DNA of 64,000 nt from IMG/VR virus record IMGVR_UViG_3300035698_018446; one strand, written 5' to 3'. A program made the position numbers and the translations under genes. Below, in pieces: positions 17,188 to 39,431 of the stretch. Source of the stretch: an uncultured virus (IMG/VR IMGVR_UViG_3300035698_018446) (taxonomy: Duplodnaviria > Heunggongvirae > Uroviricota > Caudoviricetes). The notes beneath the pieces are model-generated. The model did no database searches, was not told the DNA's origin, and saw only the letters and a list, made by a program, of their open reading frames with translations. How positions within the stretch are numbered: position 1 is the stretch's first letter; each line of letters begins with the position of its first letter.

Positions 17188-17286
17188 AACATGCTTGACG
17201 CTAAGAAAAGAATGAACGATAAAAGGTTCAAGAAGGTTGGCGACGTTCAACCCACTCATACGATAAAACATGCGGAGAGGCTTGCT

Positions 17287-18288
17287 ATGACTCATGGCGT
17301 TGGTTTGGATATAGGCACGATGAATATTGTCGCTGCCCGTCAGGAAAGCGAAGATAAGGTTCGATGCACCACCCAGCGAGACGCTTTTCTGGATCTTGAA
17401 AGATCGGCAAAGCCTATGCTCAAAATGAACAAAGTGCCCTTCATTGAGTTTCCCGACGACGATAAAATGTATGTCCTCGGTGATGCTGCGCTGAAGTTCG
17501 CTAATGTGTTCAAGCGGGATTTGCGGCGCCCCTTATCACAGGGGTTGATCTCCAACACGGATCTGGAAGGTCGTCGAATCCTTCAGGAGATCATCGCGCG
17601 CACGATCCAGCCCCCCATCATACCGAATGAAGTTTGTTACTTTTCGATTCCGGGAAACCCCGTGGATCTGCCCAACCGCGATAACGTCTTCCACCGTGGC
17701 GTTTTCGAGATGATCCTGCGGGGTTTGGGATATCGTCCTGTTGCTTCGAACGAGGCGCAAGCTGTGATCTTCGCGGAGTGCGCAGACTCCAGCTTTTCTG
17801 GTGTAGCTCTTAGCTTCGGAGCGGGAATGGTGAACGTTTCTTGCGTGTACCAGACGCAGGTGGTGCCTGAGCTTCAATTTGCTGTCGCCAAGTCGGGCGA
17901 TTACATTGACGCTCAGTCTGCTCAAAACTTAGGCATGACGGCTACTGCCATGTGCGCGCTCAAGGAAAGCGGTGTGGATCTGATGAATCCCACAACGCCC
18001 CAAGAGCAAGCCTTGACGTTTTACTATCAAGAAGTGATCCGTTATGCGCTTGAGCATATCACGAATAGGTATCGCAGCGTGGGGGGAGCCATCTCATTCC
18101 CAGAGCCCGTTCCCATGGTGATCGCTGGAGGCACAGCGAAGGCTAAGGGTTTCTTAGAGCTGTTCAAGAAAGAGTTTGACTTGAAGAAGCGTAACTTTCC
18201 TATCCCCATCTCCGAAATTCGTCTGGCAACAGATGCCTTGAACGCGGTGGCGCAAGGGCTTCTGATTCAAGCTCAACTGGAAGATTGA
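17287..18288 (+). CDS. actin-like ATPase (MreB/FtsA/ParM superfamily)
   Basis: Phosphate-1 GLDIGT, connect-1 NEAQA, phosphate-2-like SFGAGMVN, SGDYID, adenosine IAGGTA, connect-2 AVAQG; SD GGAGAGG. Confidence 0.85.
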   Translation: MTHGVGLDIGTMNIVAARQESEDKVRCTTQRDAFLDLERSAKPMLKMNKVPFIEFPDDDKMYVLGDAALKFANVFKRDLRRPLSQGLISNTDLEGRRILQEIIARTIQPPIIPNEVCYFSIPGNPVDLPNRDNVFHRGVFEMILRGLGYRPVASNEAQAVIFAECADSSFSGVALSFGAGMVNVSCVYQTQVVPELQFAVAKSGDYIDAQSAQNLGMTATAMCALKESGVDLMNPTTPQEQALTFYYQEVIRYALEHITNRYRSVGGAISFPEPVPMVIAGGTAKAKGFLELFKKEFDLKKRNFPIPISEIRLATDALNAVAQGLLIQAQLED

Positions 18289-18375: not shown

Positions 18376-20151
18376 ATGGCGTATCAGAATTTTACAGCAC
18401 CGATCAAGCGTAGGATCTTGGAGGACATGAAACGTCATTTTTCTTATATTCACCATCACAAAGACATCGAGATTCGATACAAGTATGATTTTGCAGAGCG
18501 GCCTCAGAAAGCTATTGTCCTGATGAATGTATCTGCCAATCCAATTAAGATGTCTTCTGACAATTATCTCGCGCCCCTTGAATCTTACATCCTCAAGCTC
18601 AACGTAGGTCAGAAGTCCGGCACGTTTTTAGAATGGGTTGTAGAAGACACATTGGCTGTACAACGAAACAAAGGTGTGTTTCCTGCTCAAACAGGTCTGT
18701 ACTATTTGACTATTCAGGAATCCGTTGTTGATACTATACCTAATTATTCTGTGTATGTGGACCCCTTGTATCAGGTCAAACAAGAGCCTGTAATCACGTT
18801 TGTGACGGGTGATGAGACGTTGGCGAATCTTGCACAGCTCACAATTCATCCGGGCTCTTTGCGTCTCTATTTGAACAATAAGACATCTCTCTTTAGTGGT
18901 CCTACCTTTGCGTTGAGAGGGACTCAGAGTTTACAGATATACGATCCTCTCTTTGGTCTACCTGAAGGTCCTGTCACCGTATCGTCTTCTTCAAATGTAG
19001 AGCCCTTTACGATCGTGGCGGGTGTCAATGATGTGTTGTCGTTCACTCTGAATGGAACGCCCGTAGTGGTGATCTTTTTACCGGGTTTGGTCAGCGCAGA
19101 AGCGGCTAAATTTGCGATTGATCTCGCAGCAAACGCGTTCGGATTATTCTCTCCTGAGTATCGATCTGTTGTGGATGGTGGTCGAATCCGAATTGAGGCT
19201 TCTCAAAGTTTAGAATGGGACACATTTGCGTTTTCACCCGCATCCCTTGCCTTCGGATTCCCGCAAGGTTTCGTCAATCCCGTTTCTCAAGGTCTGCTAT
19301 ATCGTCCAATTGTGCTAGAAGATCACAGAACTATGACTCTGTCCGCAGATGGCGTGGAATATCAGGTGATATTTGAACCCGGCTTGTACAAAGATCCAAA
19401 CGAAATACTTTTAAGGCTACAAAGTCAACTTTCAGGAACACCTGTAACACCAATCTTGGGATTAGGGGGCGATTTCAGTGTTGACAATAATACGGGCGAG
19501 ATCACATTTCTACAACCCTTCTTACCCGATGATTCTATCATTGCTGACTACCTGTACAAAGGCCCCTCTTCCGGTCCTTTTGCTATTGAAAAGAATCACT
19601 CCAACAATGTCATTATACCCGGTGTGGTTTTGGCTTTCGGGGAGTCTTTTGAGGATTTTGACAAGATTGCAGTGCGTGTGTATGATAGGAGAGACATTGT
19701 AGCTGACATTTACGGTGGTAAGTCCGATGTGTCTATGGACTTTGACATCATCGCAAGAGATGCTATGGACAGAGAGTCAATTACGGATTACCTACTCTTG
19801 TATTTTCATCATTTTGAGAATGAAAGGTTTAGTGAAGACGGTTTGTGTATTACCTCCGTATCGGGGGGAGGCGAGAGTGAAGAAGTATATGATGAGACGG
19901 CTGATGACTATTATTACAAATCTTCAGTGAGTGTTGCGTTTCAAACAGATTGGGAAGTTTATGTTCCAAGACCTTTGTTCATTGAGCGCATATCTCCTAT
20001 TTCTTTCGAGCAAGAAGCGCGTCTCGCTGCTCGTCTCCCGATGGACCCCACAGCGAATGATTATGTCAAGCCCGTCGTGTCTCTTACCACCCGCGAACTC
20101 CAAGAGATCGCACGGCGGGGTTTACGTTTGAAGTATGAGAGTATTGTATAA
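18376..20151 (+). CDS. putative tail completion / terminator protein with inserted beta-rich domains
   Basis: SD GGAGGTG; C-terminal MDFDIIARD...RESITD...YYKSSVSVAFQTDW resembles a tail-terminator fold; lies just upstream of the sheath. Confidence 0.55.
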   Translation: MAYQNFTAPIKRRILEDMKRHFSYIHHHKDIEIRYKYDFAERPQKAIVLMNVSANPIKMSSDNYLAPLESYILKLNVGQKSGTFLEWVVEDTLAVQRNKGVFPAQTGLYYLTIQESVVDTIPNYSVYVDPLYQVKQEPVITFVTGDETLANLAQLTIHPGSLRLYLNNKTSLFSGPTFALRGTQSLQIYDPLFGLPEGPVTVSSSSNVEPFTIVAGVNDVLSFTLNGTPVVVIFLPGLVSAEAAKFAIDLAANAFGLFSPEYRSVVDGGRIRIEASQSLEWDTFAFSPASLAFGFPQGFVNPVSQGLLYRPIVLEDHRTMTLSADGVEYQVIFEPGLYKDPNEILLRLQSQLSGTPVTPILGLGGDFSVDNNTGEITFLQPFLPDDSIIADYLYKGPSSGPFAIEKNHSNNVIIPGVVLAFGESFEDFDKIAVRVYDRRDIVADIYGGKSDVSMDFDIIARDAMDRESITDYLLLYFHHFENERFSEDGLCITSVSGGGESEEVYDETADDYYYKSSVSVAFQTDWEVYVPRPLFIERISPISFEQEARLAARLPMDPTANDYVKPVVSLTTRELQEIARRGLRLKYESIV

Positions 20152-20627
20152 TGCCTATCTTTGATTTCTATTGCGCCACATGCAGTTTGCAATTTTCCAA
20201 GCTCGTGCGGGATCGTACCTTACGCGTTTTGCCTTGCATTCATTGTTCCGAGGAGTCTGTCAAAAAAATGAGCATTCCCAATTCTCATTTTGCGGACTCT
20301 TCGCGCGGCAACCCACGCGGAGAGACGGGGGTGTTTGAGCTGGATAGTTCTTTGGATAGAAATATTGGGAGAGATGCGGACAACCGTTGGGAAATTGTCA
20401 AAGACAGAACAAGTGAGAAAGACAAGCTCCATTTAGAAGCGCAGCGCATGACCGGGAATCCAAAAGCTAAGATGGCTCTCAAGCGCGATCCCGTTACAGG
20501 GGAGTACCAGCCCATGGCGGTTTCAGAAGTAAGCGCGAACGTGGGGTTGCAAATAGATTTTAAGCAAGCGCGCTCGGAAAATGGTTTGGTGGATACAGTA
20601 AATATACCTAGTAAGAGAACTCCTTGA
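20151..20627 (+). CDS. FmdB-family zinc-ribbon protein
   Basis: MPIFDFYCATC...CIHC N-terminus. Confidence 0.75.
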   Translation: MPIFDFYCATCSLQFSKLVRDRTLRVLPCIHCSEESVKKMSIPNSHFADSSRGNPRGETGVFELDSSLDRNIGRDADNRWEIVKDRTSEKDKLHLEAQRMTGNPKAKMALKRDPVTGEYQPMAVSEVSANVGLQIDFKQARSENGLVDTVNIPSKRTP

Positions 20628-20744: not shown

Positions 20745-23700
20745 ATGAGCATTTTCCCTATATACGCACCTCCCGGAGTGTACACACAGACTCGCGCCCA
20801 AGATGACGTGGCGGGACCTCCAGCGGGATTGCTGCTGCCCGTTTTCGTGGGAACGGGGAAAGAGACGCTTCAGCAAGTAAATCTTGAGATGGTGCGCGGT
20901 TCTTCAGTACAAGCGGATCAGCAGATTACGCGCGAAGACGTAGCAAGCCGTTTTATTCTGTCACAGACGGGTGAAACGAATTTCGTGCTTGGAGCCTTGG
21001 ACGGAGCTGCGGCACGTTTTCAGGTCCAGAAGTTTCCTATCGTCACGGGCGAAGGTACGGGCACGATCACAAACAATGTGGCAAACATCTCGGTGACCGT
21101 GAATGGCGTCCCTGTGCGTCCAGCGGGGCTTCGCGGGAATGTGGGTGTCATCACGTTGCAGGTTCCCCCGCTCCCCGGCGATGACGTGCGCGTGACGTAT
21201 TTCTTCAAGCGCACAGACACCCAAGTGCAGGACGATGTTGCTTCTCAAGTGTCGTCTAATGTTGCTCGTCTGTTCGGATCGCTCCCTGCGAACTATACAA
21301 TCGTAGCCGGAGTCAATGACTCTTTGGTACTGGTAGTCGATGGTATTTCTCACAGCGTGACAATCCCAGCTGTGGCGGGTATCAATGCTCCAGATCTTGC
21401 GGTACAGATCAACGCTCTTCTTATCCCCGGTCTCTTTGTAGACTCAGATGTGGATAATCTCGGACAGGGCAGAATTGTGTTAGAAGCCGCGCAGGGCTTG
21501 GTTGTGGGCGCGGGAACGTCGAACATTGTCCTAGGCTTTGTCAATGGTCAACGCACCACGCGTAATCGTGTGTTCTTCACTTATCAAGGGCCGATCGTTG
21601 ATGGTCGTAACGGCGGCATCACATCGACTAATCCTTTAGATGTTTTCGTCCTAGTGGATAGCGTCCGCGTAATCCCCTCGGAGGTCGATGGATCGAATCG
21701 CGCTGTGACTCTCCCCTTCGCGCCCGCGCAAGGGTCCACGGTTTCGATACGGTATTTCTTCAACGCGTGGCAGGACACCTTCGATTACCTTCCGAACACG
21801 GGCATCACGGATGTGACCGCTGTGGGTAATATTCCGGATAAGGCGGATTACCGTGTGGGTTTGGATTATGTGGTGCAGGATGACCGCGTTATTTGGGGCG
21901 CCGCGACAAGCATCACGGCGGGAGAGCATACGGCGGGAACAGATTTTCTGGATGATAGCCAGATATCTCCGATGTTGGTTGACGACAGGATTTTCCTTGA
22001 ATCTGCGTCACGTTTTATTGATCGCACTGTGTCTCCCGCGCGCGCATCCGATGTTACTTTCGTGTTGGGAAATATCCCAACGATCGGTAACGGGCGTGAT
22101 ACCCCGCTCAACCTTGATCTCTTCAATGCTTTGTCCAATGGTCGCAACGATGTTCCTACGAATCGTCCAGATCTGATTCAGGTCTTTACTGGACCTAATT
22201 TGTCTGCTGCGATCTTGGATGGCCCTCGCGCTGTGGTGCGCGTCGATGCAGCATCGCGTCAGGTAACGCTCAAGACTTCGATCCCACCTGATCATCTTGT
22301 GTGGGCGACCTACTACTACAATCGTATGCGCGACGATCTATACACTTTGACCGTGCAGACTCAGACATCAGGTTTGATTCCCGGTCAGTATACTGTTGGA
22401 TCGCTGCTAACAGGTTTGAATCTTCGTGATGTGCGCTTCGGGACTTCGGCGGTATCCGAGCCAGTCCAATGGCCGTCGGGTGTAGAGATTGCACCTGATG
22501 CCTTTATTGTTGGGACTAAGGGTGTCAACGAGATTGCCACGGTCACGTTTACACAAGTCGGAGCAACTCCGGCTGTGTTCACGAACAAGGCCGCTGGACC
22601 TTATGACATGTATGCGACTCATTCCGATCAGCTTTATGTTACGTTGTCGGGCGTAGACACTCTGACGAATCTTGCGCAGCCCGCCCCCGCTTCTTTGGTG
22701 AGCGCCGCAGTACCTTCTGCTTCTAACTTTGTCTTCACCAGCGCGAACAACGGCTTTAGCTACTCGCTAGACGGGGTCGTTGTGAACGTGACATTCCCCG
22801 TGGGCACATACACGGGCGCGCAAGTCGTAGATCGCATCAATCGTGGTGCAGTACCTCTTAGCACGGCTACGGGATCTGTTGCAGGTCCTTACGACATCGT
22901 GTCGGCAATCACGGGATCCGTTGCAGGCCCCTACGACATCTATGCAGATATTTTAGGATCACAGATCGGACCCTTTGATATCTTTGCACAAGTCAACGGC
23001 GTCACGGCGGGACCTTTCAACATCTTTGCACAGATCTTAGGTGCAGTAGCAGGCCCCTACAACACCTACGGCACGCTTACCAGCCCGCTGACGGGGCCTT
23101 TCGACACAACAGCGGGTAACAATCTCTTTGACCTAACCGTCAACGGTGTTTTGATCAACGCAGTTTTGACAGTAGGCGTCGCAGTGACGGCGGCCACTCT
23201 TGTGGCAGATATCACGTCCGCCGCCGTCGCAGCGGGTGTTGCTGTGGGGCCTTTGGTTTATCCTACAACCAATTCTTTACAGCTTTTGGACGTACTCGGC
23301 GCGCTTGAAATACGAGTGACGGATAGTCTTTTGATCGGTGCGGGAACGGCGAACACTCCTATGGGTTTCGTGGCTGCTTCGTCTTCTTTAGCGTTGAAGG
23401 CTTTGGATCTGACGCTAAATGGTGTCACAGTCAACGTCACGAATATTCCGGGCGCAGCTTCGGTGCCGACTTCGGCGGTAATTTCGTCAATCGCTTCTGC
23501 GGCAACGCTGGCAGGGTTGGTTGTTGGCCCCCTCAATGTCTTGACTAATGATGTGAGCATTGTAGATGTGGCGGGCGTGATTCGTTTAAGGGGCACGGTA
23601 TCTGTTGAAATTGGATTGCTGTCTGCGACGAACGCTCTCTTGGGCTTTGTGTCCGCCGCTTTGGTCAATGCAACCAACGCTCTCAATCTTAATGTTGTGG

Positions 23701-26700
23701 TCCTCGGCGTGCCTATCAACGTGCCTGTGACTCTGGGCGGAGGAGAGAACATCCCGGTCTCAATTGTAGTCAATGACATCAATCTTTCTCTTTTGAGCGC
23801 GGGTTTTGTCGTAGGACCGTTAGCGATCTTGACAAATAACTTTAATGCTCTTGTAGGTCCGGGTCAGACTGTTCGGCTCGAAACCAAAGAAGGGATCACT
23901 GTCAACGCTGCGGCTTTCAGTGCCAATATTCTCTTAGGATTGCCTTTAGGTACTGTAGGCGCGTTGAACACGTTCGATCTCACGATCAACTCTACGTTGG
24001 TCAACGTCGTATTGCGCGCGGGAGCCTCGGGCCGCAACGTTCCCGCCGCTGCGATAGCTACTGCGATTGAAGCAGCGGCGACATTGGCAGGTTTGGTGTC
24101 AGGATCTTTGATCGTAAGCGGTAATGACTTTGACGTGCTTGTAGGGTCTTCTGGTCAGCTTGAAATACAGGCGACGCAGACGTTGCTAGTGGGGGCGGGA
24201 ACGGCGAACTTAGCACTTGGTTTTGTAGCAGCATCTTCGGATGCGGCGGCAAATCAAATTCTCTTCACCGCGAACGGGACACCTGTTGTGGTGACTTTCA
24301 CAGGAGGCCGATCGATAGCGCCCGCTACGATCCAGACGGAGATTGAGTCCGCGATGGTCGCCGCTCTTCTCGTGGTAGGCCCCCTGAGCTTGTCGGGCAA
24401 TGAAGCTGATGTGGTGATTGTCAATAACGCGGTCAGAATCCGCGCGATTGATACTCTTCTCATGGGCGCGGGTAGTGCTAACGCTATTCTGGGCTATACA
24501 AACGCAACATCAGTCACGACTTCGGATGCCCTGAGCTTCATAGTCAATGGTATCCCCGTGGCATTGACTTTGAGTCATCTTGCTTCGGTATCGTCCGCTT
24601 CAGTTGTAGCACAGATCAATGCTGCCCTATCACTTGCAGGTCTTGTGGTAGGACCTTTGACACAACCTTTGACCACGGCTAATGCTGTAATCACAGCGAC
24701 GGGCGGGGTGCAGGTTCAGGCGCTCACCAACCTCACGGTGATTTTAGCGACGGCGAACACCACCCTAGGGCTTGTCTCCGGAATTCTCCCCACAAACGTG
24801 ACATTCGCGCGCATTCGTCTAGGAGTCACGACAGATCGAATCTTCATCAGATCACGCGTCTTGCCCGCTTCACCTTCCGAAGTAAGCTCGCTTCAAATCC
24901 TAAGCGGTACAGGAAATGGTACTTTAGGTTTTGTATCGTTTGTTTCCGCAACGGGAACAGAAAGTGCTGTAAACAAGCCTGCCACTTTGGTGGGAACAGC
25001 AGTGACATCCTTGCAGATCGCCAATCTATCTGTTCAGAATCCTGTTTTTGTGTTGCGTTTAAATGGCGCTGAGTATCAGGTGGGGGGCTTTGGCGCGGTG
25101 ACAACAATGAGCGACGTGGCCGCTCTTATCAACGTGGTGATTCTTGGTGCAGGTGTAGCGTTGGCGGAGGGTAATCGCCTTCGGATCACATCTGCACTTG
25201 ACACCTTGAATTCACTCGTTGAGATTCCTGTCAATGCCGCTAATGCGTTCCTAGGGTTCACAGGACGCGAGCGCGCGGCACAACGCAAGGTTGGCGCATC
25301 GGAGGTTGTGGCGGTCCTTAACTGGTCCTCATTGAGCTGGTTAGCGCCTGTGTCTTCAGATTTTATTGGACAGGCTTTCGCAGAATCGGTCACGGTTCTG
25401 GGCAAGGGTAACTTTGTCAAGATGACCACGTTTGAAGAAGGCGCGCTCCGTTCAATCTTGTTTGGTGTTGGTGTGGACAGTGCGATTAATGACACACAGG
25501 TTGGGATCGCCATTGGGGATAATGCATCGGGTACGGACTCTGTTGATGGCTTCACGGTCACGTCAAGCCTCTTGTCTGGAGGATCGGCGGGTACTGGTGT
25601 AGTGGGCAAGACCTACACGGATGTGAAGACGGGTCTTCGGTTTAGCCTTCTGGCCGCCGCAGATAGTGCTTACACACCGGGTGAGTCTTTTACCCTAGTC
25701 GTAGCGGATACCTTCTTGACGGGATCTCAAGCGTCACTTGCTGTTCCCGGAATCGAAATGATTGTCACGAACACTACAAATGTGGGCGTGACGGATACTT
25801 CACTATTACGGACGTTTGACGGTAGCGGCGCAGAGCCTTCTGTTGGGGATTTCTATTATATCACTTATGAGTATTTGAAGACCAACTTCGATACGGTTTT
25901 GTTTACTAATCTTGCGGATGTAATTGCCAATTACGGTCCCCTTGATGTAGACAATCCCTTGACCGTAGCTGCATACTTAGCCTTCATCAACGGAGCTGCT
26001 GTGGTGGGCTGTAAGCAAGTCTTGAAGCAGAGTGGTTTGGATAGCGCGTCCGCAGTATCGTACATCCTCGCGGTGTCCGAGCTGGAGAAGCCCCTGACGG
26101 GGGGTGTGTTGCCCGATTACATCATCCCGCTCACCTCGGATCTGACAGTTTGGAATGCCTTGGTGCGTAGTGCAGAAGTACAATCTTCAATTCGGTACCG
26201 TCAAGAGCGGCGCGTGATCTTAGGTTGCGCGAGCGGCACAAGACCACAGGATGCACAGGCACAAGCAAAGGGCATCTTGTCCGAGCGCGCTGTGTTGGTG
26301 TATCCTGATTCCGCTATCCTCAGCCTCCCTAATGAACTTGGGGTAGCAGAGCAGTTTGTGGTGGATGGAGTGTATCTTGCCGCTGCATTTGCGGGCTTGG
26401 AAGTGTCGCCTCAGTTTGACGTGGCAGAGCCTAAGACACGCAAGCGTTTGGTAGGGTTCGACCGCTTGAATCGTTCACTGAACAACGTCGAAAAAGATGC
26501 TTTGGCGATTGATGGTGTCACCGTGTTGGAAGATACGAACGGAACGGTCCTCGTGCGTCACGCGCGCACGACAGACCCCCGCTCGGTATTGACTTCGGAG
26601 CCTTCTGTGGTGGGTATTAAGGACTTCGTGCAGAAGCGTACTCGTGACGCGCTGGATAGATTCATCGGAACCAAGTTCCTAATCACGAGAGCTTCCGATG

Positions 26701-26885
26701 TGGAGACAACACTGACTGCGCTGCTAAATTCGCTGGTCGAGGCTTCCATCATCCGCTCTTTCAGGGGGGTGAGCGCATCTCCGTCCCCAATCGATCCCAC
26801 GGCGCTTGAAGTGGTCGCCTTTTATAGCCCTGTCTTCCCCCTTAACTACATCCGCGTGACCTTCACGATCCGCACTCAGAGCTGA
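20745..26885 (+). CDS. giant contractile tail sheath protein (2046 aa)
   Basis: N-terminal PPGVYT and PVFVGTG; C-terminal sheath domain (ERAVLVYP, GVTVLE, DALDRFIG, YSPVFPLNYIRVTF); large beta-rich insertions. Confidence 0.9.
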   Translation: MSIFPIYAPPGVYTQTRAQDDVAGPPAGLLLPVFVGTGKETLQQVNLEMVRGSSVQADQQITREDVASRFILSQTGETNFVLGALDGAAARFQVQKFPIVTGEGTGTITNNVANISVTVNGVPVRPAGLRGNVGVITLQVPPLPGDDVRVTYFFKRTDTQVQDDVASQVSSNVARLFGSLPANYTIVAGVNDSLVLVVDGISHSVTIPAVAGINAPDLAVQINALLIPGLFVDSDVDNLGQGRIVLEAAQGLVVGAGTSNIVLGFVNGQRTTRNRVFFTYQGPIVDGRNGGITSTNPLDVFVLVDSVRVIPSEVDGSNRAVTLPFAPAQGSTVSIRYFFNAWQDTFDYLPNTGITDVTAVGNIPDKADYRVGLDYVVQDDRVIWGAATSITAGEHTAGTDFLDDSQISPMLVDDRIFLESASRFIDRTVSPARASDVTFVLGNIPTIGNGRDTPLNLDLFNALSNGRNDVPTNRPDLIQVFTGPNLSAAILDGPRAVVRVDAASRQVTLKTSIPPDHLVWATYYYNRMRDDLYTLTVQTQTSGLIPGQYTVGSLLTGLNLRDVRFGTSAVSEPVQWPSGVEIAPDAFIVGTKGVNEIATVTFTQVGATPAVFTNKAAGPYDMYATHSDQLYVTLSGVDTLTNLAQPAPASLVSAAVPSASNFVFTSANNGFSYSLDGVVVNVTFPVGTYTGAQVVDRINRGAVPLSTATGSVAGPYDIVSAITGSVAGPYDIYADILGSQIGPFDIFAQVNGVTAGPFNIFAQILGAVAGPYNTYGTLTSPLTGPFDTTAGNNLFDLTVNGVLINAVLTVGVAVTAATLVADITSAAVAAGVAVGPLVYPTTNSLQLLDVLGALEIRVTDSLLIGAGTANTPMGFVAASSSLALKALDLTLNGVTVNVTNIPGAASVPTSAVISSIASAATLAGLVVGPLNVLTNDVSIVDVAGVIRLRGTVSVEIGLLSATNALLGFVSAALVNATNALNLNVVVLGVPINVPVTLGGGENIPVSIVVNDINLSLLSAGFVVGPLAILTNNFNALVGPGQTVRLETKEGITVNAAAFSANILLGLPLGTVGALNTFDLTINSTLVNVVLRAGASGRNVPAAAIATAIEAAATLAGLVSGSLIVSGNDFDVLVGSSGQLEIQATQTLLVGAGTANLALGFVAASSDAAANQILFTANGTPVVVTFTGGRSIAPATIQTEIESAMVAALLVVGPLSLSGNEADVVIVNNAVRIRAIDTLLMGAGSANAILGYTNATSVTTSDALSFIVNGIPVALTLSHLASVSSASVVAQINAALSLAGLVVGPLTQPLTTANAVITATGGVQVQALTNLTVILATANTTLGLVSGILPTNVTFARIRLGVTTDRIFIRSRVLPASPSEVSSLQILSGTGNGTLGFVSFVSATGTESAVNKPATLVGTAVTSLQIANLSVQNPVFVLRLNGAEYQVGGFGAVTTMSDVAALINVVILGAGVALAEGNRLRITSALDTLNSLVEIPVNAANAFLGFTGRERAAQRKVGASEVVAVLNWSSLSWLAPVSSDFIGQAFAESVTVLGKGNFVKMTTFEEGALRSILFGVGVDSAINDTQVGIAIGDNASGTDSVDGFTVTSSLLSGGSAGTGVVGKTYTDVKTGLRFSLLAAADSAYTPGESFTLVVADTFLTGSQASLAVPGIEMIVTNTTNVGVTDTSLLRTFDGSGAEPSVGDFYYITYEYLKTNFDTVLFTNLADVIANYGPLDVDNPLTVAAYLAFINGAAVVGCKQVLKQSGLDSASAVSYILAVSELEKPLTGGVLPDYIIPLTSDLTVWNALVRSAEVQSSIRYRQERRVILGCASGTRPQDAQAQAKGILSERAVLVYPDSAILSLPNELGVAEQFVVDGVYLAAAFAGLEVSPQFDVAEPKTRKRLVGFDRLNRSLNNVEKDALAIDGVTVLEDTNGTVLVRHARTTDPRSVLTSEPSVVGIKDFVQKRTRDALDRFIGTKFLITRASDVETTLTALLNSLVEASIIRSFRGVSASPSPIDPTALEVVAFYSPVFPLNYIRVTFTIRTQS
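22869..23120 (+). repeat. six tandem 42-bp (14-aa) repeats within the sheath gene
   Basis: xGxxAGP(Y/F)(D/N)I units starting at 22869, 22911, 22953, 22995, 23037 and 23079. Confidence 0.9.
23118..24795 (+). repeat. six tandem ~91-97-aa domain repeats within the sheath gene
   Basis: NxLxLTxNG...AGLVVGPL...IxxxxxLLxGAGxANxxLGF units starting near 23118, 23397, 23676, 23967, 24252 and 24525. Confidence 0.85.
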
Positions 26886-26971: not shown

Positions 26972-27050
26972 CGTTGACGTTTGCGCATAAATAGTCAAAA
27001 TAGGGAATTAGAAGCCTTGGGGGTGATACATACAAAAAATGGAGTCTGTT

Positions 27051-28649
27051 ATGGCTAAGAAAATTGTGTTTGAGAATGAAGCGCGTGATGGTCTTATGGA
27101 GGGAGCGGCGATCCTATCTAAGGCTGTGGTCAAGACTTTGGGGCCAGCAGGTCGCACGGTTATGATACAAAGAATGAACAATATGCCCATGATCACAAAA
27201 GATGGCGTGACTGTGGCTCGCGACATAGAGCTTGAAGACGCTCTCTTGAATATGGGCGCCCGTCTTCTCAGGGAGTCTTCTCGCCAAACCGTCGAGTCTT
27301 CCGGGGATGGCACAACCACTTCCGCTCTCCTCGCGTGCAATCTCTTGGAGAATATGCATCGACAGATCAATGTGGGATTCTCTCCCATGCTCTTGAAGAA
27401 AGGTATGGACAATGCCGCCATGGAAGCGATCGCGTACATTCAGGGCAGCTTGTCTAAGTCAGTCGAAGGCATCGACGAGATTGAGAGGATCGCGACGATC
27501 TCAAGTAATGGGGACACACATCTCGGCAATCTTATCGCTACGGCGATTGAGACAGCCGGGACAGAGGGTGTGATCATGGTTGAAGAAGGGCAGAAGGTGA
27601 CGACAACCTTAGAGTTTGCTGAAGGCTATCAGATCGATAGAGGCTATCTCGATCAAAAGTTCTTGGGGCACCCTTCCCTGACAGGGGTAGATTGGGAAGA
27701 CGCCTTTGTACTGGTCGCTAATAAAAAGATGTCCTCAGCACATGAGAGCCTTCCTATCCTGCAATTCGTTCTTAATGCGGGCCGTCCTTTGATTGTCATA
27801 GCGCATGACTTTGAGGGAGATTTCTTGGCGTCATTGTATCAGAATGTCATGGGAAAAGTGATTGAGGCGATCCCCATTAAGGCCGCCTTCTTCTCTACAA
27901 AAAGAGAGGAGACTTTAAAGGACATCGCGATTTTGACAGGCGGTACGCTTGTTGATGATCTTGTGGGGAATACTTTCGCGGATTTGTCGCCAGAACAAAT
28001 CTTAGGCATCGCTCGAAAAGTGTCCGTGACGGCGACGCATACTACGATTCTGGAAGGCACTGCGGATGAGGAGACGCTTGTTTCTCGAATTGCACATGCT
28101 AAAAATATGGCGACGCATTGTGGATCAGAACATGATCGAGAGTTTCATCAGCAGCGCGCGTCGTTCCTTGGAGGCGGGGTAGCCGTGATCCGGGTAGGAG
28201 CGCAGACAGAGAGTGAACTCAAAGAGTATAAAGCACGCGTAGAGGATGCGCTCGCTGCGACGAGATCGGCGCTCAAGGGCGGTTATGTTTTGGGCGGCGG
28301 TGTGACCTATCTTCACGCAGCTCAACATGTGAAGACCATGCGAGCCATGAGGTCTTTCGCTACAGGAGAGGAAGACTTGGGATGGAAAATCGTCGAAGAA
28401 GCTCTGGAAGCCCCGTTTAAGCACATATTGCTGAACGCGGGCCTCAAGGCGGAGCGGCTTCTGGTAGAGCATGAGATTTACCATTCCACGGATTACAGCA
28501 AGGTTTATGATCTGAGGACTGAGAACTTCATCGATGGCTTTGAAGCGGGAATCTTGGATCCAACTCTAGTTGTTGTCTCCGCCATTCGTCACGCTGTTTC
28601 TGTGTCTACCACGATGGGTATGGTAGCCTGCGCTATTTACCACGCATAA
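27051..28649 (+). CDS. groEL: phage-encoded group I chaperonin (GroEL-like)
   Basis: MAKKIVF, TLGPAGRTV, ITKDGVTVA, GDGTTTS, GGVAVIRVGA, RVEDALAATR, GILDP; no GGM tail. Confidence 0.95.
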   Translation: MAKKIVFENEARDGLMEGAAILSKAVVKTLGPAGRTVMIQRMNNMPMITKDGVTVARDIELEDALLNMGARLLRESSRQTVESSGDGTTTSALLACNLLENMHRQINVGFSPMLLKKGMDNAAMEAIAYIQGSLSKSVEGIDEIERIATISSNGDTHLGNLIATAIETAGTEGVIMVEEGQKVTTTLEFAEGYQIDRGYLDQKFLGHPSLTGVDWEDAFVLVANKKMSSAHESLPILQFVLNAGRPLIVIAHDFEGDFLASLYQNVMGKVIEAIPIKAAFFSTKREETLKDIAILTGGTLVDDLVGNTFADLSPEQILGIARKVSVTATHTTILEGTADEETLVSRIAHAKNMATHCGSEHDREFHQQRASFLGGGVAVIRVGAQTESELKEYKARVEDALAATRSALKGGYVLGGGVTYLHAAQHVKTMRAMRSFATGEEDLGWKIVEEALEAPFKHILLNAGLKAERLLVEHEIYHSTDYSKVYDLRTENFIDGFEAGILDPTLVVVSAIRHAVSVSTTMGMVACAIYHA

Positions 28650-28699: not shown

Positions 28700-29551
28700 A
28701 TGAATCCCATCTTTATCACACATGCGAACTGCAATGATGGCAAGTGGTCCGCAGTTATCGCATCTATGTTCTATGGCGAAGGCAATGTAGAGATTGTGTA
28801 CGCGGTCTATCACTCGAATCCCCCTGATGTGACGGGGAGAGATGTGGTGATTGCAGACTTTTCTTACTCCCGTGAAGTGCTTTTGGACATGCATGACAAA
28901 GCCAATACACTTATTGTCTTGGATCATCATGCAAGCTCAGCAGAGGATCTTGAGGGTTTAGACTTCTGCATCTTCGACATGAACCATTCCGGCGCAGTCC
29001 TGACATGGCTGCACTTTTATCCTGATCAAGAAGTGCCCAAGATCCTCCTCCATGTGCAAGACCATGATCTGTGGCGCTTTGAAATGCCCGACACGAAAGC
29101 GATTGTACAGGGTATGTGGCTCAATACTGATTTGAGCTTCGATGTGTCCGATCTCAAGAAAAGCGGGGGCGCTTCTAATCTCGATAAATATCGTGATGAC
29201 GGCACAATCTTGCTTCTGAAACAAGATATAGAGATCCCCAAGATTGCTAAAAAAGCGCATTCTATTCGGATTGGCGGCCATGTTGTGCCCGCCGTGAACT
29301 CGAACACATATATTTCTGAGCTGGGCAACGTTCTATCTGATAACACATTGTTCGCCGTAGTGTATCAGATAGTGGATGCGGATCATGTGTCTTTGAGTTT
29401 TAGGTCTAGATATGGTAGCCAAGAACAGGCGCTTGACGTGTCTAAGATCGCAGCTCAGTTTGGGGGCGGCGGTCACAAGGCGGCGGCGGGAGGGGTTACG
29501 AGTTTAGCAATCTTATTGCTCATGTGTAAATGGGCGGAGCGACTTGAGTGA
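28700..29551 (+). CDS. DHH/DHHA1-family phosphoesterase (NrnB-like)
   Basis: H-x-x-C-x-DG, ADFS, LDHH, QDHDLW, SFRS and GGGGHKAAAG motifs. Confidence 0.9.
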   Translation: MNPIFITHANCNDGKWSAVIASMFYGEGNVEIVYAVYHSNPPDVTGRDVVIADFSYSREVLLDMHDKANTLIVLDHHASSAEDLEGLDFCIFDMNHSGAVLTWLHFYPDQEVPKILLHVQDHDLWRFEMPDTKAIVQGMWLNTDLSFDVSDLKKSGGASNLDKYRDDGTILLLKQDIEIPKIAKKAHSIRIGGHVVPAVNSNTYISELGNVLSDNTLFAVVYQIVDADHVSLSFRSRYGSQEQALDVSKIAAQFGGGGHKAAAGGVTSLAILLLMCKWAERLE

Positions 29552-36994: not shown

Positions 36995-37534
36995 ATGCGA
37001 AAGGCAGATTATTATGTTCTGGATCTAGAGCTTACACATTCTTCATACTTGATTGAAATTGGCGTCACACATGTATACGGCGAAGTGTTGACAACATTCT
37101 TCCACACTCTCGTACAACCTCATGTGGATCTGGATAAACATGTCTCTGTCCTAACAGGGATAACCGCTGCTATGCTCAAAGACGCCCCTCCGGAAGAAGA
37201 GTGCCTTATACATTTTATAGCATGTTTTTCAGAAGTGCAACATCCAAATATACTAGTTTGGGGGGAGGATGAAAAGATACTACGGAAAGTTGCGAATCGG
37301 TATAAGATGACGCATCTTCTCAAGGATTTTGTATTCTATGACTTGCGCAACTTACTTCCTTTTCTCAGGTTCTGGTGTGGAGACATCGTGCCAACAAACA
37401 AGAATTCTTTATGGGCAGTGGCACAATCGCTAGGGATTACTCAAGAAGATCAAGCGCACCGTGCTTTAGACGATGCGTGGATCACTTCAAAAGTCATGTC
37501 TCTTTTGATGGGTAGACTTTTGAATATTAGCTGA
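36995..37534 (+). CDS. DEDDh 3'-5' exonuclease (DnaQ-like)
   Basis: ExoI DLE, LTGIT, ExoIII HRALDDA. Confidence 0.88.
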   Translation: MRKADYYVLDLELTHSSYLIEIGVTHVYGEVLTTFFHTLVQPHVDLDKHVSVLTGITAAMLKDAPPEEECLIHFIACFSEVQHPNILVWGEDEKILRKVANRYKMTHLLKDFVFYDLRNLLPFLRFWCGDIVPTNKNSLWAVAQSLGITQEDQAHRALDDAWITSKVMSLLMGRLLNIS

Positions 37535-39431
37535 TGTCGTTCTCAACCCTGTACGTTGATAGATGAGCCTGAATCTTTTCAAGTCTTCCTTCAGCTTTCT
37601 TTCCCATAAGCATCGTGAAGACTTCTTCACACGAATCAAGGTCAAGCGGCCATTCCACCTGAATCAAGCTGCGGGAGTTTGGATCCATCGTCGTCTCTTT
37701 GAGATCTGACGCGCGCATTTCTCCTAATCCCTTAAAACGGGACACTTCGGGGTTCTTTTTGTGATGCTTCTTGAGCAGACGATCACGCTCCGCGTCGTTC
37801 ATCGCCCACAATTTGTCTTTGCCCATACTCAGGGAGAAAAGTGGAGGTTGGGCAATGTAGACATGTCCATTTCGGATGAGGTCGGGCATGTGGCGGTAGA
37901 AGAACGTCAGTAGAAGGGATACGATATGCCCACCATCAGAGTCCGCGTCCATTAGCAAGATGACACGCTCGTATCGAAGATCCGTGATATTGAACTTCTT
38001 ACCCAAGCCGCATCCTAAAGTCTCTACCAAGGCTTCAATCTCTTTATTGAAGAGGAGGTCTTCTGCTCGGATACGATCTGTGTTGAGGATCTTACCTCGC
38101 AGCGGAAGCACAGCCTGAGCATGTCGGTTTCTCGCTTGCTTGGCAGACCCACCTGCGGAGTCACCTTCCACCAGAAAGACTTCCCGATCTTCGCGGACCG
38201 TGTTTAGACACTCTGCCAGCTTTCCGGGCAGTACAGGTCGATTGTCTTTCTTCTTGGACGTGCCTATTTCTTGCTTTTTTTGGTGCAGTCGCAGCTGTCT
38301 ATTTTCGTAGACGTAATCTAAGAGCAATCTGGCTTGTGTGGGGTTGCTCGTCAAGAAATGCTCCACAGCGCCAAACACAATTTTTTGGATCGTGCCTTGA
38401 TACTGCGGCGCATAGAGCTTTGCCTTCAAGTTCCCCTCAAAGCTGATCTCGCCTCGGATCGTCAACGCCAACACGAATCGCAAGCCGCCCTTAATGTCTT
38501 CATTCTGGAGCGGCGATTTCTTACTCTGAACAAGCTCGTCATATTGTCTCAAGGCTTGCAGCAGACCCATTGTTAAGCCCGTCTCATGGCTTCCACCGTC
38601 GTATGTGGGTATCATGTTGACAAAGCTCGCGGATCGCGTGTCGCGGGCTCTAACCCAGCCTAGGATTAGATTCAACGTCAGGTTATCTTGCGTCCTGTTA
38701 AGGTCTAGCGATTTTTCCACTACGGGCTCTTGCGTTTCCCCCTCTTGCGTGCATATTTCTGGAAATAGAGCCTTGATACCATCCTTGAACAGAAACACTT
38801 CCTCTCTATCCCCGCAGCGCAGGGTGAACGTCACGCCTGCGAGGATGTGAGCTTTGTTCTTGATCGATGTTCTGATCTTATCATACTCCAGTCTCTTGTG
38901 GTCAAAGAGCGCGAACAAGGGCTTGAATCGTACCGTAGATCCCCGTTTGGAGTCCGCTGGAACCCGATCTCTCGTGTCAATCGACACCACATCGCCATCC
39001 ACAGTCCTAAAGACCGTGACCACTTCTCCATGCACGACAGTTGCTGTAAGATACTCCGACAAGAAATTGACTACCGAAGCGCCGACACCGTGCAGACCTC
39101 CCGACGCGGCATAGCTATTTTGATCAAATTTTCCGCCCGCATGGAACTTTAAGAACACCATTTCAATGCCACGAACTCCCGTCACGGTATTGATATCAAC
39201 GGGTATGCCACGACCATTATCTTTGACCTCAATCTCTTGACCGTCTTCAGCCAGCCATATATCTATCTTAGACGCATGGTTGTTCAAGGCTTCGTCACAA
39301 GAGTTGTCCAAGATTTCCGCGACGAGATGATGCAGCCCACGAATGTCTGTGGAACCAATATACATGTTAGGGCGCAACCTTACCGCTTCTTTCTCGGTGA
39401 GGACACGAATTTCATTACTACCGTAACTCAT
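37527..39431 (-). CDS. gyrB: type IIA topoisomerase B subunit (GyrB/ParE)
   Basis: RPNMYIG, EILDNSCDE, DNGRGIP, GGLHGVG, EGDSAGG, PLRGK, TOPRIM DADSDG, RFKGLGEM; gyrase versus topo IV not resolved. Confidence 0.9.
   Translation of the reverse strand: MSYGSNEIRVLTEKEAVRLRPNMYIGSTDIRGLHHLVAEILDNSCDEALNNHASKIDIWLAEDGQEIEVKDNGRGIPVDINTVTGVRGIEMVFLKFHAGGKFDQNSYAASGGLHGVGASVVNFLSEYLTATVVHGEVVTVFRTVDGDVVSIDTRDRVPADSKRGSTVRFKPLFALFDHKRLEYDKIRTSIKNKAHILAGVTFTLRCGDREEVFLFKDGIKALFPEICTQEGETQEPVVEKSLDLNRTQDNLTLNLILGWVRARDTRSASFVNMIPTYDGGSHETGLTMGLLQALRQYDELVQSKKSPLQNEDIKGGLRFVLALTIRGEISFEGNLKAKLYAPQYQGTIQKIVFGAVEHFLTSNPTQARLLLDYVYENRQLRLHQKKQEIGTSKKKDNRPVLPGKLAECLNTVREDREVFLVEGDSAGGSAKQARNRHAQAVLPLRGKILNTDRIRAEDLLFNKEIEALVETLGCGLGKKFNITDLRYERVILLMDADSDGGHIVSLLLTFFYRHMPDLIRNGHVYIAQPPLFSLSMGKDKLWAMNDAERDRLLKKHHKKNPEVSRFKGLGEMRASDLKETTMDPNSRSLIQVEWPLDLDSCEEVFTMLMGKKAEGRLEKIQAHLSTYRVENDIS

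Follow-up and report, generated by a model that had tools for sequence, protein, structure and literature searches.

Candidate six-deep self-nesting of a FliD-D3-like domain in the tail sheath protein of an uncultured jumbo phage

Phage tail sheaths, flagellins and flagellar cap proteins are known to gain domains by nested insertion, but only to a depth of two or three levels. The domains of the phage T4 sheath protein gp18, for example, are successive insertions. In this work we analyze a tail sheath protein of 2046 amino acids, P0001, encoded on a 64,000-nucleotide stretch of DNA from an uncultured virus (IMG/VR record IMGVR_UViG_3300035698_018446), which we refer to as the window. The middle of P0001 consists of six short repeats followed by six long ones. 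We argue that this arrangement is best explained by repeated insertion of a FliD-D3-like domain into itself, nested six deep, a reading that we regard as probable, supported rather than proven.

The closest described systems share either the fold or the principle. The report on the sheath of Vibrio phage XM1 likens its insertion domain (InD) to domain D3 of the flagellar cap protein FliD (PMC10457771). The sheath proteins of phages XM1 (gp6), E217, phiTE, A-1(L) and Mu (about 440–505 residues) resemble P0001 in placing this fold on the outside of the contractile sheath subunit. They carry a single copy, whereas P0001 contains nine or more complete or partial copies, six of which we read as nested in one another. 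FliD and flagellins are built as domains within domains: in FliD, a continuous middle stretch of the chain forms the outer domain and the inner domains are assembled from the flanking N- and C-terminal pieces (PMC8306008). Closer still in principle is the flagellin of Geovibrio thiophilus (PDB 9au6), in which a FliD-D2-like domain is reported to have been duplicated and inserted into a loop of itself to give D4 and D5 (PMC11532411). Self-insertion of this fold is therefore already in print at a depth of two, in a flagellin; the sheaths considered here would reach six or seven levels, within a further enclosing copy. FliD and the T4-type sheaths differ from P0001 in having two or three levels of mostly unlike domains and in not sorting strands and bodies into separate arrays. 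A survey of 112 sheath proteins gives a maximum of ‘five and more’ domains, for the sheaths of Ackermannviridae and jumbo phages (PMC9230969). An initial reading of the window from its sequence alone (the sequence-only reading) had noted that sheath domains are known nested insertions but knew of no six-deep recursion of one repeat. The Geovibrio case makes the principle a known one and leaves the depth as new: our literature search for self-nesting deeper than two levels found none, which by itself does not establish absence from print. The new elements would be the depth of six or seven levels inside a further copy and the resulting gene layout, in which all strands form one array and all bodies another, in reverse order.

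By sequence, P0001 is a contractile tail sheath protein, as had been proposed. It is translated from an open reading frame (ORF) that is open throughout, and its C-terminal region contains the conserved sheath core, matching the PHROG family phrog_2839 (Table 1). Using tblastn, residues 1686–2042 are 30–32% identical to sheaths annotated in Bacillus phage G and in many mycobacteriophages (cluster-C-type), and the core also matches the annotated sheath of Tunturiibacter phage Tunturi_5. Pfam returned two sub-threshold matches and nothing above threshold, no solved structure in the PDB matched full-length P0001 by sequence, and no isolate phage covered 80% or more of P0001 by tblastn. The best tblastn record is an unannotated 485-kb uncultured phage, with 39% identity over 59% of the protein. 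The window also encodes GroEL, a type II topoisomerase subunit, a DHH phosphoesterase, a helicase, methyltransferases and very large structural ORFs; its source is an uncultured jumbo-type phage.

The repeat block lies N-terminal to the sheath core. The sequence-only reading had placed it at 22869..24795, equivalent to residues 709–1351, and had counted six short units and then six bodies. We confirm both counts, with the units at residues 706–789 and the bodies at residues 794–1343. We name the 14-residue units S1–S6, the bodies B1–B6 and the split copy that encloses them X. The units share the core motif G/A-P-[YF]-[DN]-x at a spacing of exactly 14 residues. The bodies are 82–98 residues long and 27–44% identical to one another, and the linkers preceding bodies 2–6 lack the G-P-[YF] motif. 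Unit-profile matches to S1–S6 have expectation (E) values of 9.5e-8 to 9.2e-6 and body-profile matches to B1–B6 of 3.5e-33 to 3.3e-29, values that are circular because the profiles were built from these same repeats. At the level of the protein sequence, the pattern of units and bodies is far beyond chance, and it recurs in five homologues. Tandem Repeats Finder detected no DNA-level repeat in the block. The repeats are old and have diverged at the protein level rather than arising from recent duplications.

To relate the units to the bodies, we used a profile of the intact domain (92 positions; 17 training rows from family members, including S6+B1 of P0001 and of four homologues). Three copies cover the profile from end to end, among them D0, the intact copy that the sequence-only reading had pointed out earlier in the protein, and residues 780–875, where S6 runs directly into B1. 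The other bodies enter the profile late, at position 17 for B2, B3 and B5, position 10 for B4 and position 13 for B6, and the units match positions 1–17 weakly (E 0.18). On both sides of the block lie pieces of one further copy: residues 662–709 correspond to positions 7–59 (E 7.6e-7) and residues 1380–1396 to positions 76–92 (a weak match, E 0.0017). In homologues without the block, for example P0008, X is uninterrupted. From these coordinates, five bodies are without a first segment, five extra first segments lie upstream of them, and the block splits the further copy X. Two earlier proposals are thereby borne out, that only the sixth unit continues into a body and that the block interrupts another copy. 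S6+B1 is, on profile coordinates, the only complete domain within the block, and it lies between two pieces of another copy. The profile supports the view that the short units are the detached first segments of the same domain as the bodies. The further suggestion that every insertion uses the same loop applies to the six units, where the split falls between strands 1 and 2, but not to X, which is split after its helix.

There may be one more outer copy, W. Its putative N-terminal part (residues 612–650) has a weak profile match; a helix and last strands at about residues 1513–1605 (about 25281–25559) were recognised by eye and have no profile match. If real, W would add one more level of nesting.

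The fold of the domain was identified from an AlphaFold2 model of residues 590–1520, compared in an all-against-representatives search (VIA). Its confident parts are limited to D9, the intact copy that follows the block (predicted local distance difference test, pLDDT, 77–89), and the two halves of X (66–82 over residues 650–701, the region of the N-terminal half). D9 is most similar to the insertion domain of XM1 gp6 (7kh1_A6, residues 95–217; Z 11.9, root-mean-square deviation 2.4 Å, 108 residues aligned). It also matches domains D2/D3 of the FliD cap (Z 7.5–9.0, with four FliD chains at 8.0–9.0), the sheaths of phages E217, phiTE, A-1(L) and Mu (Z 6.2–8.7) and the outer domains of flagellins (Z 4.9–7.1). 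The Geovibrio thiophilus flagellin (9au6_A) is among the fold matches, at Z 5.1. On the evidence of this model, the domain is a FliD-D3-like sheath insertion domain. Fold-search matches with 91–95 aligned residues span model residues 70..815, meaning that AlphaFold2 builds X as one unit from halves about 650 residues apart. For the bodies, only the profile provides a link to D9 and D0, as their models are too poor for a fold search.

We propose the following arrangement. The outward-facing part of the sheath would carry a FliD-D3-like insertion domain that has been inserted repeatedly into itself. Each of six copies would be split into a first segment (14 residues) and the rest (~82 residues plus a ~10-residue linker), with the next copy placed in the gap, so that the chain would run outward through six first segments. 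It would then form one complete domain at the tip, S6+B1, and return through five bodies, each completed by a first segment left behind: S5–B2, S4–B3, S3–B4, S2–B5 and S1–B6. The whole stack would sit in a loop of the seventh copy, X. Such a stack may fold from the tip downward like a zip, and because neighbouring domains would be tied by two chain crossings instead of one, the resulting rod would be stiffer than a beads-on-a-string chain. It would stand out from every sheath subunit and might serve in adhesion or as a spacer, with a length set by matched repeat numbers. We thus infer the rigid stalk that the sequence-only reading had proposed, and its length; the strands would be supplied within a subunit or between subunits. 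A comparable way of working is found in chaperone-usher pili, in which an Ig-like fold is missing its last strand and receives it from the next subunit by donor-strand complementation, giving a stiff chain. P0001 is not a member of that family, and the likeness lies in a domain short of one strand being completed by a strand from elsewhere. The differences are that the fold is FliD-D3-like, that the missing piece is the first segment, and that it is probably supplied by the same chain.

The proposed arrangement specifies which unit meets which body. We predicted the complex of S1–S3 (residues 706–747) and B4–B6 (residues 1067–1343) with ESMFold2, entering them as separate chains with a 6-row alignment (A2) for each. 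The interaction prediction score from aligned errors (ipSAE) was 0.71, 0.72 and 0.71 in three runs, compared with 0.00 for the best of 3 controls. In the complex the units have pLDDT 88–89 and the bodies 92, and the runs share at least 97% of contacts. When the units were replaced by unrelated proteins (n = 2), ipSAE was 0.00, with pLDDT of 47 and 28 for the substitutes and 71 and 73 for the bodies. When the bodies were replaced by an unrelated protein, ipSAE was again 0.00, with pLDDT of 30 for the units and 90 for the replacement chain. Among solved complexes 116 of 157 attain the ipSAE mark, compared with 2 of 215 mismatched pairs, a benchmark that is only rough here because our own 6-row alignment was used. 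Binding is supported by this prediction, not shown.

The 25 lowest-error contacts indicate the order of pairing. Thirteen join S2 (residues 19 and 24–28, A2 numbering) to B5, and six join S3 (residues 29–33) to B4 (residues 435–454). Three more connect the first residue of S3 to the B4–B5 linker, two the last residue of S2 to B4, and one S2 to the B5–B6 linker. Equivalent contacts are shifted by +91 in the bodies for every −14 in the units, as in 545:19 and 454:33. B6 repeats the interface of B5 at an offset of +91, and S1–S3 take part in the interface along their full length of 42 residues, so S1 falls to B6. The separated pieces thus dock in silico in nested order. The prediction supports an antiparallel pairing, as nesting requires, and no chain link between units and bodies imposed it. 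The sequence-only reading had expected structure prediction to pair the first strand with the last body and so on inward. The ESMFold2 complex agrees for S2–B5 and S3–B4; AlphaFold2 gave nothing readable.

We next asked how units and bodies are distributed in homologues. The sample comprised 52 family sequences (48 full-length and 4 fragments) together with ORFs from IMG/VR and metagenome contigs, all scanned with the body profile. More than one body occurs in six of the 52 proteins, and in 6/6 the number of units equals the number of bodies. P0001–P0005 have six of each, and P0006 (2138 residues) has seven of each, again at the exact 14-residue spacing. Equal numbers of short and long repeats in homologues had been named in advance as a check, and it came out as expected: 6:6 five times and 7:7 once. 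No protein with unequal numbers was seen among the family sequences, IMG/VR or the metagenomes. The unit motif and its exact spacing are kept among proteins down to 36–40% identity. Single-body inserts have one contiguous first segment in 13/13 cases and are located at the same place in X. The remaining homologues have neither units nor bodies, or have other kinds of domain inserted at the site. By eye, P0014 and P0036 also have the single-body arrangement.

In a tree of 38 bodies, the six positions are orthologous in P0001, P0002 and P0004, and largely so in P0005. In P0006 the last body groups with the sixth of the others, and B2 and B3 are lineage-specific sisters (support 95/92). As evidence for pairing, the equal counts are suggestive, not strong.

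Several observations weigh against the nested arrangement. Given the body tree, the equal counts rest on one clear independent change, six against seven. No protein with 2–5 copies was found in the word-index, exhaustive representative, IMG/VR, metagenome, genome or isolate-phage (tblastn) searches; the copy numbers encountered across all collections are 0, 1, 6 and 7 only. The histories of units and bodies also fail to agree. We looked for congruent duplication histories and found none, because the units have been homogenised among themselves. In P0006, S3 and S5 are identical at 12/14 residues, but the bodies proposed to pair with them, B5 and B3, share only 41% identity; conversely, the partners of the sister bodies B2 and B3, S6 and S5, are identical at 3/14. 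Within P0001, S1 and S2 are identical at 11/14 residues. The units thus appear to evolve in concert, independently of the bodies, with no matching closeness in the proposed partners. In a covariation analysis of 30 pairs from five proteins, the nested order ranked 94th and the forward order 215th among 720 consistent pairings, ranks that indicate a test short of power.

The structural predictions contribute to this side as well. With a 6-row alignment, AlphaFold2 modelled residues 590–1520 with a mean pLDDT of 44.8 (23–32 in the unit region) and residues 760–972 (S5, S6, B1 and B2) with a mean of 48.5 (26–31 in the units); even the contiguous S6+B1 was poorly modelled. We rejected any pairing from either model as too poor to read. 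The ESMFold2 docking is a prediction from a 6-row alignment, covers three of the five split pairs, and yields S1–B6 from the interface pattern and not from the listed contacts.

Finally, 14-residue repeats also occur without bodies. The representative search with residues 590–1520 returned six phage proteins (P0016, P0017 and P0021–P0024) in which a head domain, Laminin_G_3 in P0016, is followed by 15–40 tandem copies of x-G-[KR]-[YF]-D-[IV], a repeat for which there is no Pfam family. These proteins raise the alternative that the sheath units fold by themselves into a small beta-solenoid or beta-roll, one rung per unit, and that the bodies are six ordinary tandem domains, five of which lack a first strand or have it replaced. 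The equal counts would then be coincidental. Concerted evolution of the units apart from the bodies would fit this picture, as would the alignment of the sheath unit array to the free-standing arrays, which is gapless over ~80 residues and scores 50–83 bits, compared with at most 6.8 bits for 30 shuffled controls. In the Atlas, P0017 falls among nameless viral clusters, and its model resembles an RTX beta-roll cluster with a TM score of 0.46, which is weak and a lead only. A profile of a single unit, on the other hand, does not score above shuffles on the free-standing arrays (best 0.0 bits), leaving homology unproven; the two kinds of array may share descent, or only a period and a turn motif. 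The free-standing arrays may be the same strand element put to another use. Against a separate solenoid, ESMFold2 places all 42 residues of S1–S3 along three bodies and gives three units without bodies a pLDDT of only 30, and AlphaFold2 predicted no solenoid for the six units. Furthermore, S6 certainly belongs to a domain, and coincidence would have to account for equal counts in 6/6 proteins, including the 7:7 case. We consider this alternative unlikely, though the best of those that compete with nesting.

A second alternative accepts the pairing and changes the partner: the units would complete bodies of the neighbouring sheath subunit, producing a mesh on the tail surface. The ESMFold2 docking worked in trans, so the sequence itself does not require units and bodies to come from one chain, and strand exchange does hold sheath cores together in the ‘handshake’ described for XM1 (PMC10457771). 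Two points argue for the same chain. S6 continues directly into B1 and each unit follows the previous one without a gap, so that the same-chain partner is always the closest. In addition, a five-domain hairpin exchanged between subunits would need to withstand their large rotation at contraction. None of our data favour the exchange, and we judge it somewhat less likely than a solenoid. Least credible, and in our estimate very improbable, is that the units make up a flexible tether with little structure, as their AlphaFold2 pLDDT of 23–32 might suggest, left by slippage without a structural role beside bodies that fold alone: the motif and spacing persist down to 36–40% identity, no repeat is seen in the DNA, ESMFold2 docks the units with high confidence, and the bodies lack a segment that is present in every intact copy.

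We therefore return to self-nesting and its consequences. If it is correct, self-insertion can be iterated, and it leaves a gene layout, all first strands followed by the bodies in reversed order, that is recognisable from sequence alone. In its fullest form, to which we give an even chance, P0001 and its relatives would contain the deepest natural self-nesting seen, six levels, or seven in P0006, inside a seventh or eighth copy. Each subunit would bear a doubly tethered, zip-folding rod of perhaps 15–25 nm, whose length could evolve only by matched changes at two sites in the gene. Nature would thereby offer a design for stiff rods of protein with a defined length. The arrangement raises the questions of whether the stack closes like a zip from the tip and how the two repeat arrays stay equal, and under it a clade of uncultured jumbo phages should have tails that look bristled.

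Table 1. Positions of the sheath gene, its domain copies and neighbouring genes in the window.
Feature	Position	Strand	Basis
Tail sheath ORF (P0001)	20745..26885	+	phrog_2839 match and tblastn to annotated sheaths
D0, intact domain copy, residues 178–265	21276..21539	+	profile 1–92, E 2.1e-21
Tentative W, N-terminal part (first strand and hairpin), residues 612–650	22578..22694	+	residues 617–646 = profile 4–33, E 0.0029
X, N-terminal half (strand 1, hairpin, helix), residues 662–705	22728..22859	+	profile 7–59, E 7.6e-7
Units S1–S6, residues 706–789, 42 nucleotides each	22860..23111	+	14-residue spacing; S1–S3 dock on B6–B4 in the ESMFold2 complex
B1, residues 794–875, contiguous with S6; innermost complete domain (tip)	23124..23369	+	residues 780–875 = profile 1–92, E 7.4e-27
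B2 and linker, residues 876–968; proposed partner S5	23370..23648	+	profile 17–92; body profile E 3.3e-29
B3 and linker, residues 969–1066; proposed partner S4	23649..23942	+	starts at profile 17; body profile E 9.7e-30
B4 and linker, residues 1067–1160; predicted partner S3	23943..24224	+	6/25 lowest-error pairs
B5 and linker, residues 1161–1251; predicted partner S2	24225..24497	+	13/25 lowest-error pairs
B6 and linker, residues 1252–1343; partner S1 by elimination	24498..24773	+	interface = B5 interface shifted +91
X, C-terminal half, residues 1344–1396	24774..24932	+	residues 1380–1396 = profile 76–92, E 0.0017, weak
D9, intact copy after the block, residues 1408–1505	24966..25259	+	AlphaFold2 pLDDT 77–89; VIA Z 11.9
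Conserved sheath core, residues 1695–2044	25827..26876	+	phrog_2839 ‘tail sheath’, E 1.4e-36
GroEL	27039–28649		PHROG match
DHH phosphoesterase	28700–29551		PHROG match
Topoisomerase II large subunit (further on)	37527–39431		PHROG match

Across the family, the site at the tip of X, or of the domain inserted in X, is a hotspot for insertion. Unrelated extra domains of ~100–300 residues are found there in sheaths of 1548–1861 residues (P0042, P0046, P0048 and P0052; L015, L016–L023 and L027). Another layout is seen in P0026, a flagellin of 1612 residues with Flagellin_N and Flagellin_C ends, whose middle appears by eye to be many tandem intact copies of this type of domain, a beads-on-a-string alternative to nesting.

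The genes around the sheath gene were also compared with PHROG. No informative match was obtained for its upstream neighbours at 17191–18288, 18376–20151 and 20151–20627. In Tunturi_5 the homologous sheath adjoins the tail terminator. Directly after the sheath gene of the window, where a tail tube gene might be expected, lies a phage GroEL (phrog_5725, E 2.7e-120), followed by the DHH phosphoesterase. Two genes upstream of the sheath, the otherwise unannotated ORF at 18376–20151 (plus strand, 591 residues) contains a copy of the FliD-D3-like domain (profile positions 1–78, E 4.3e-11) and perhaps a second, partial one.

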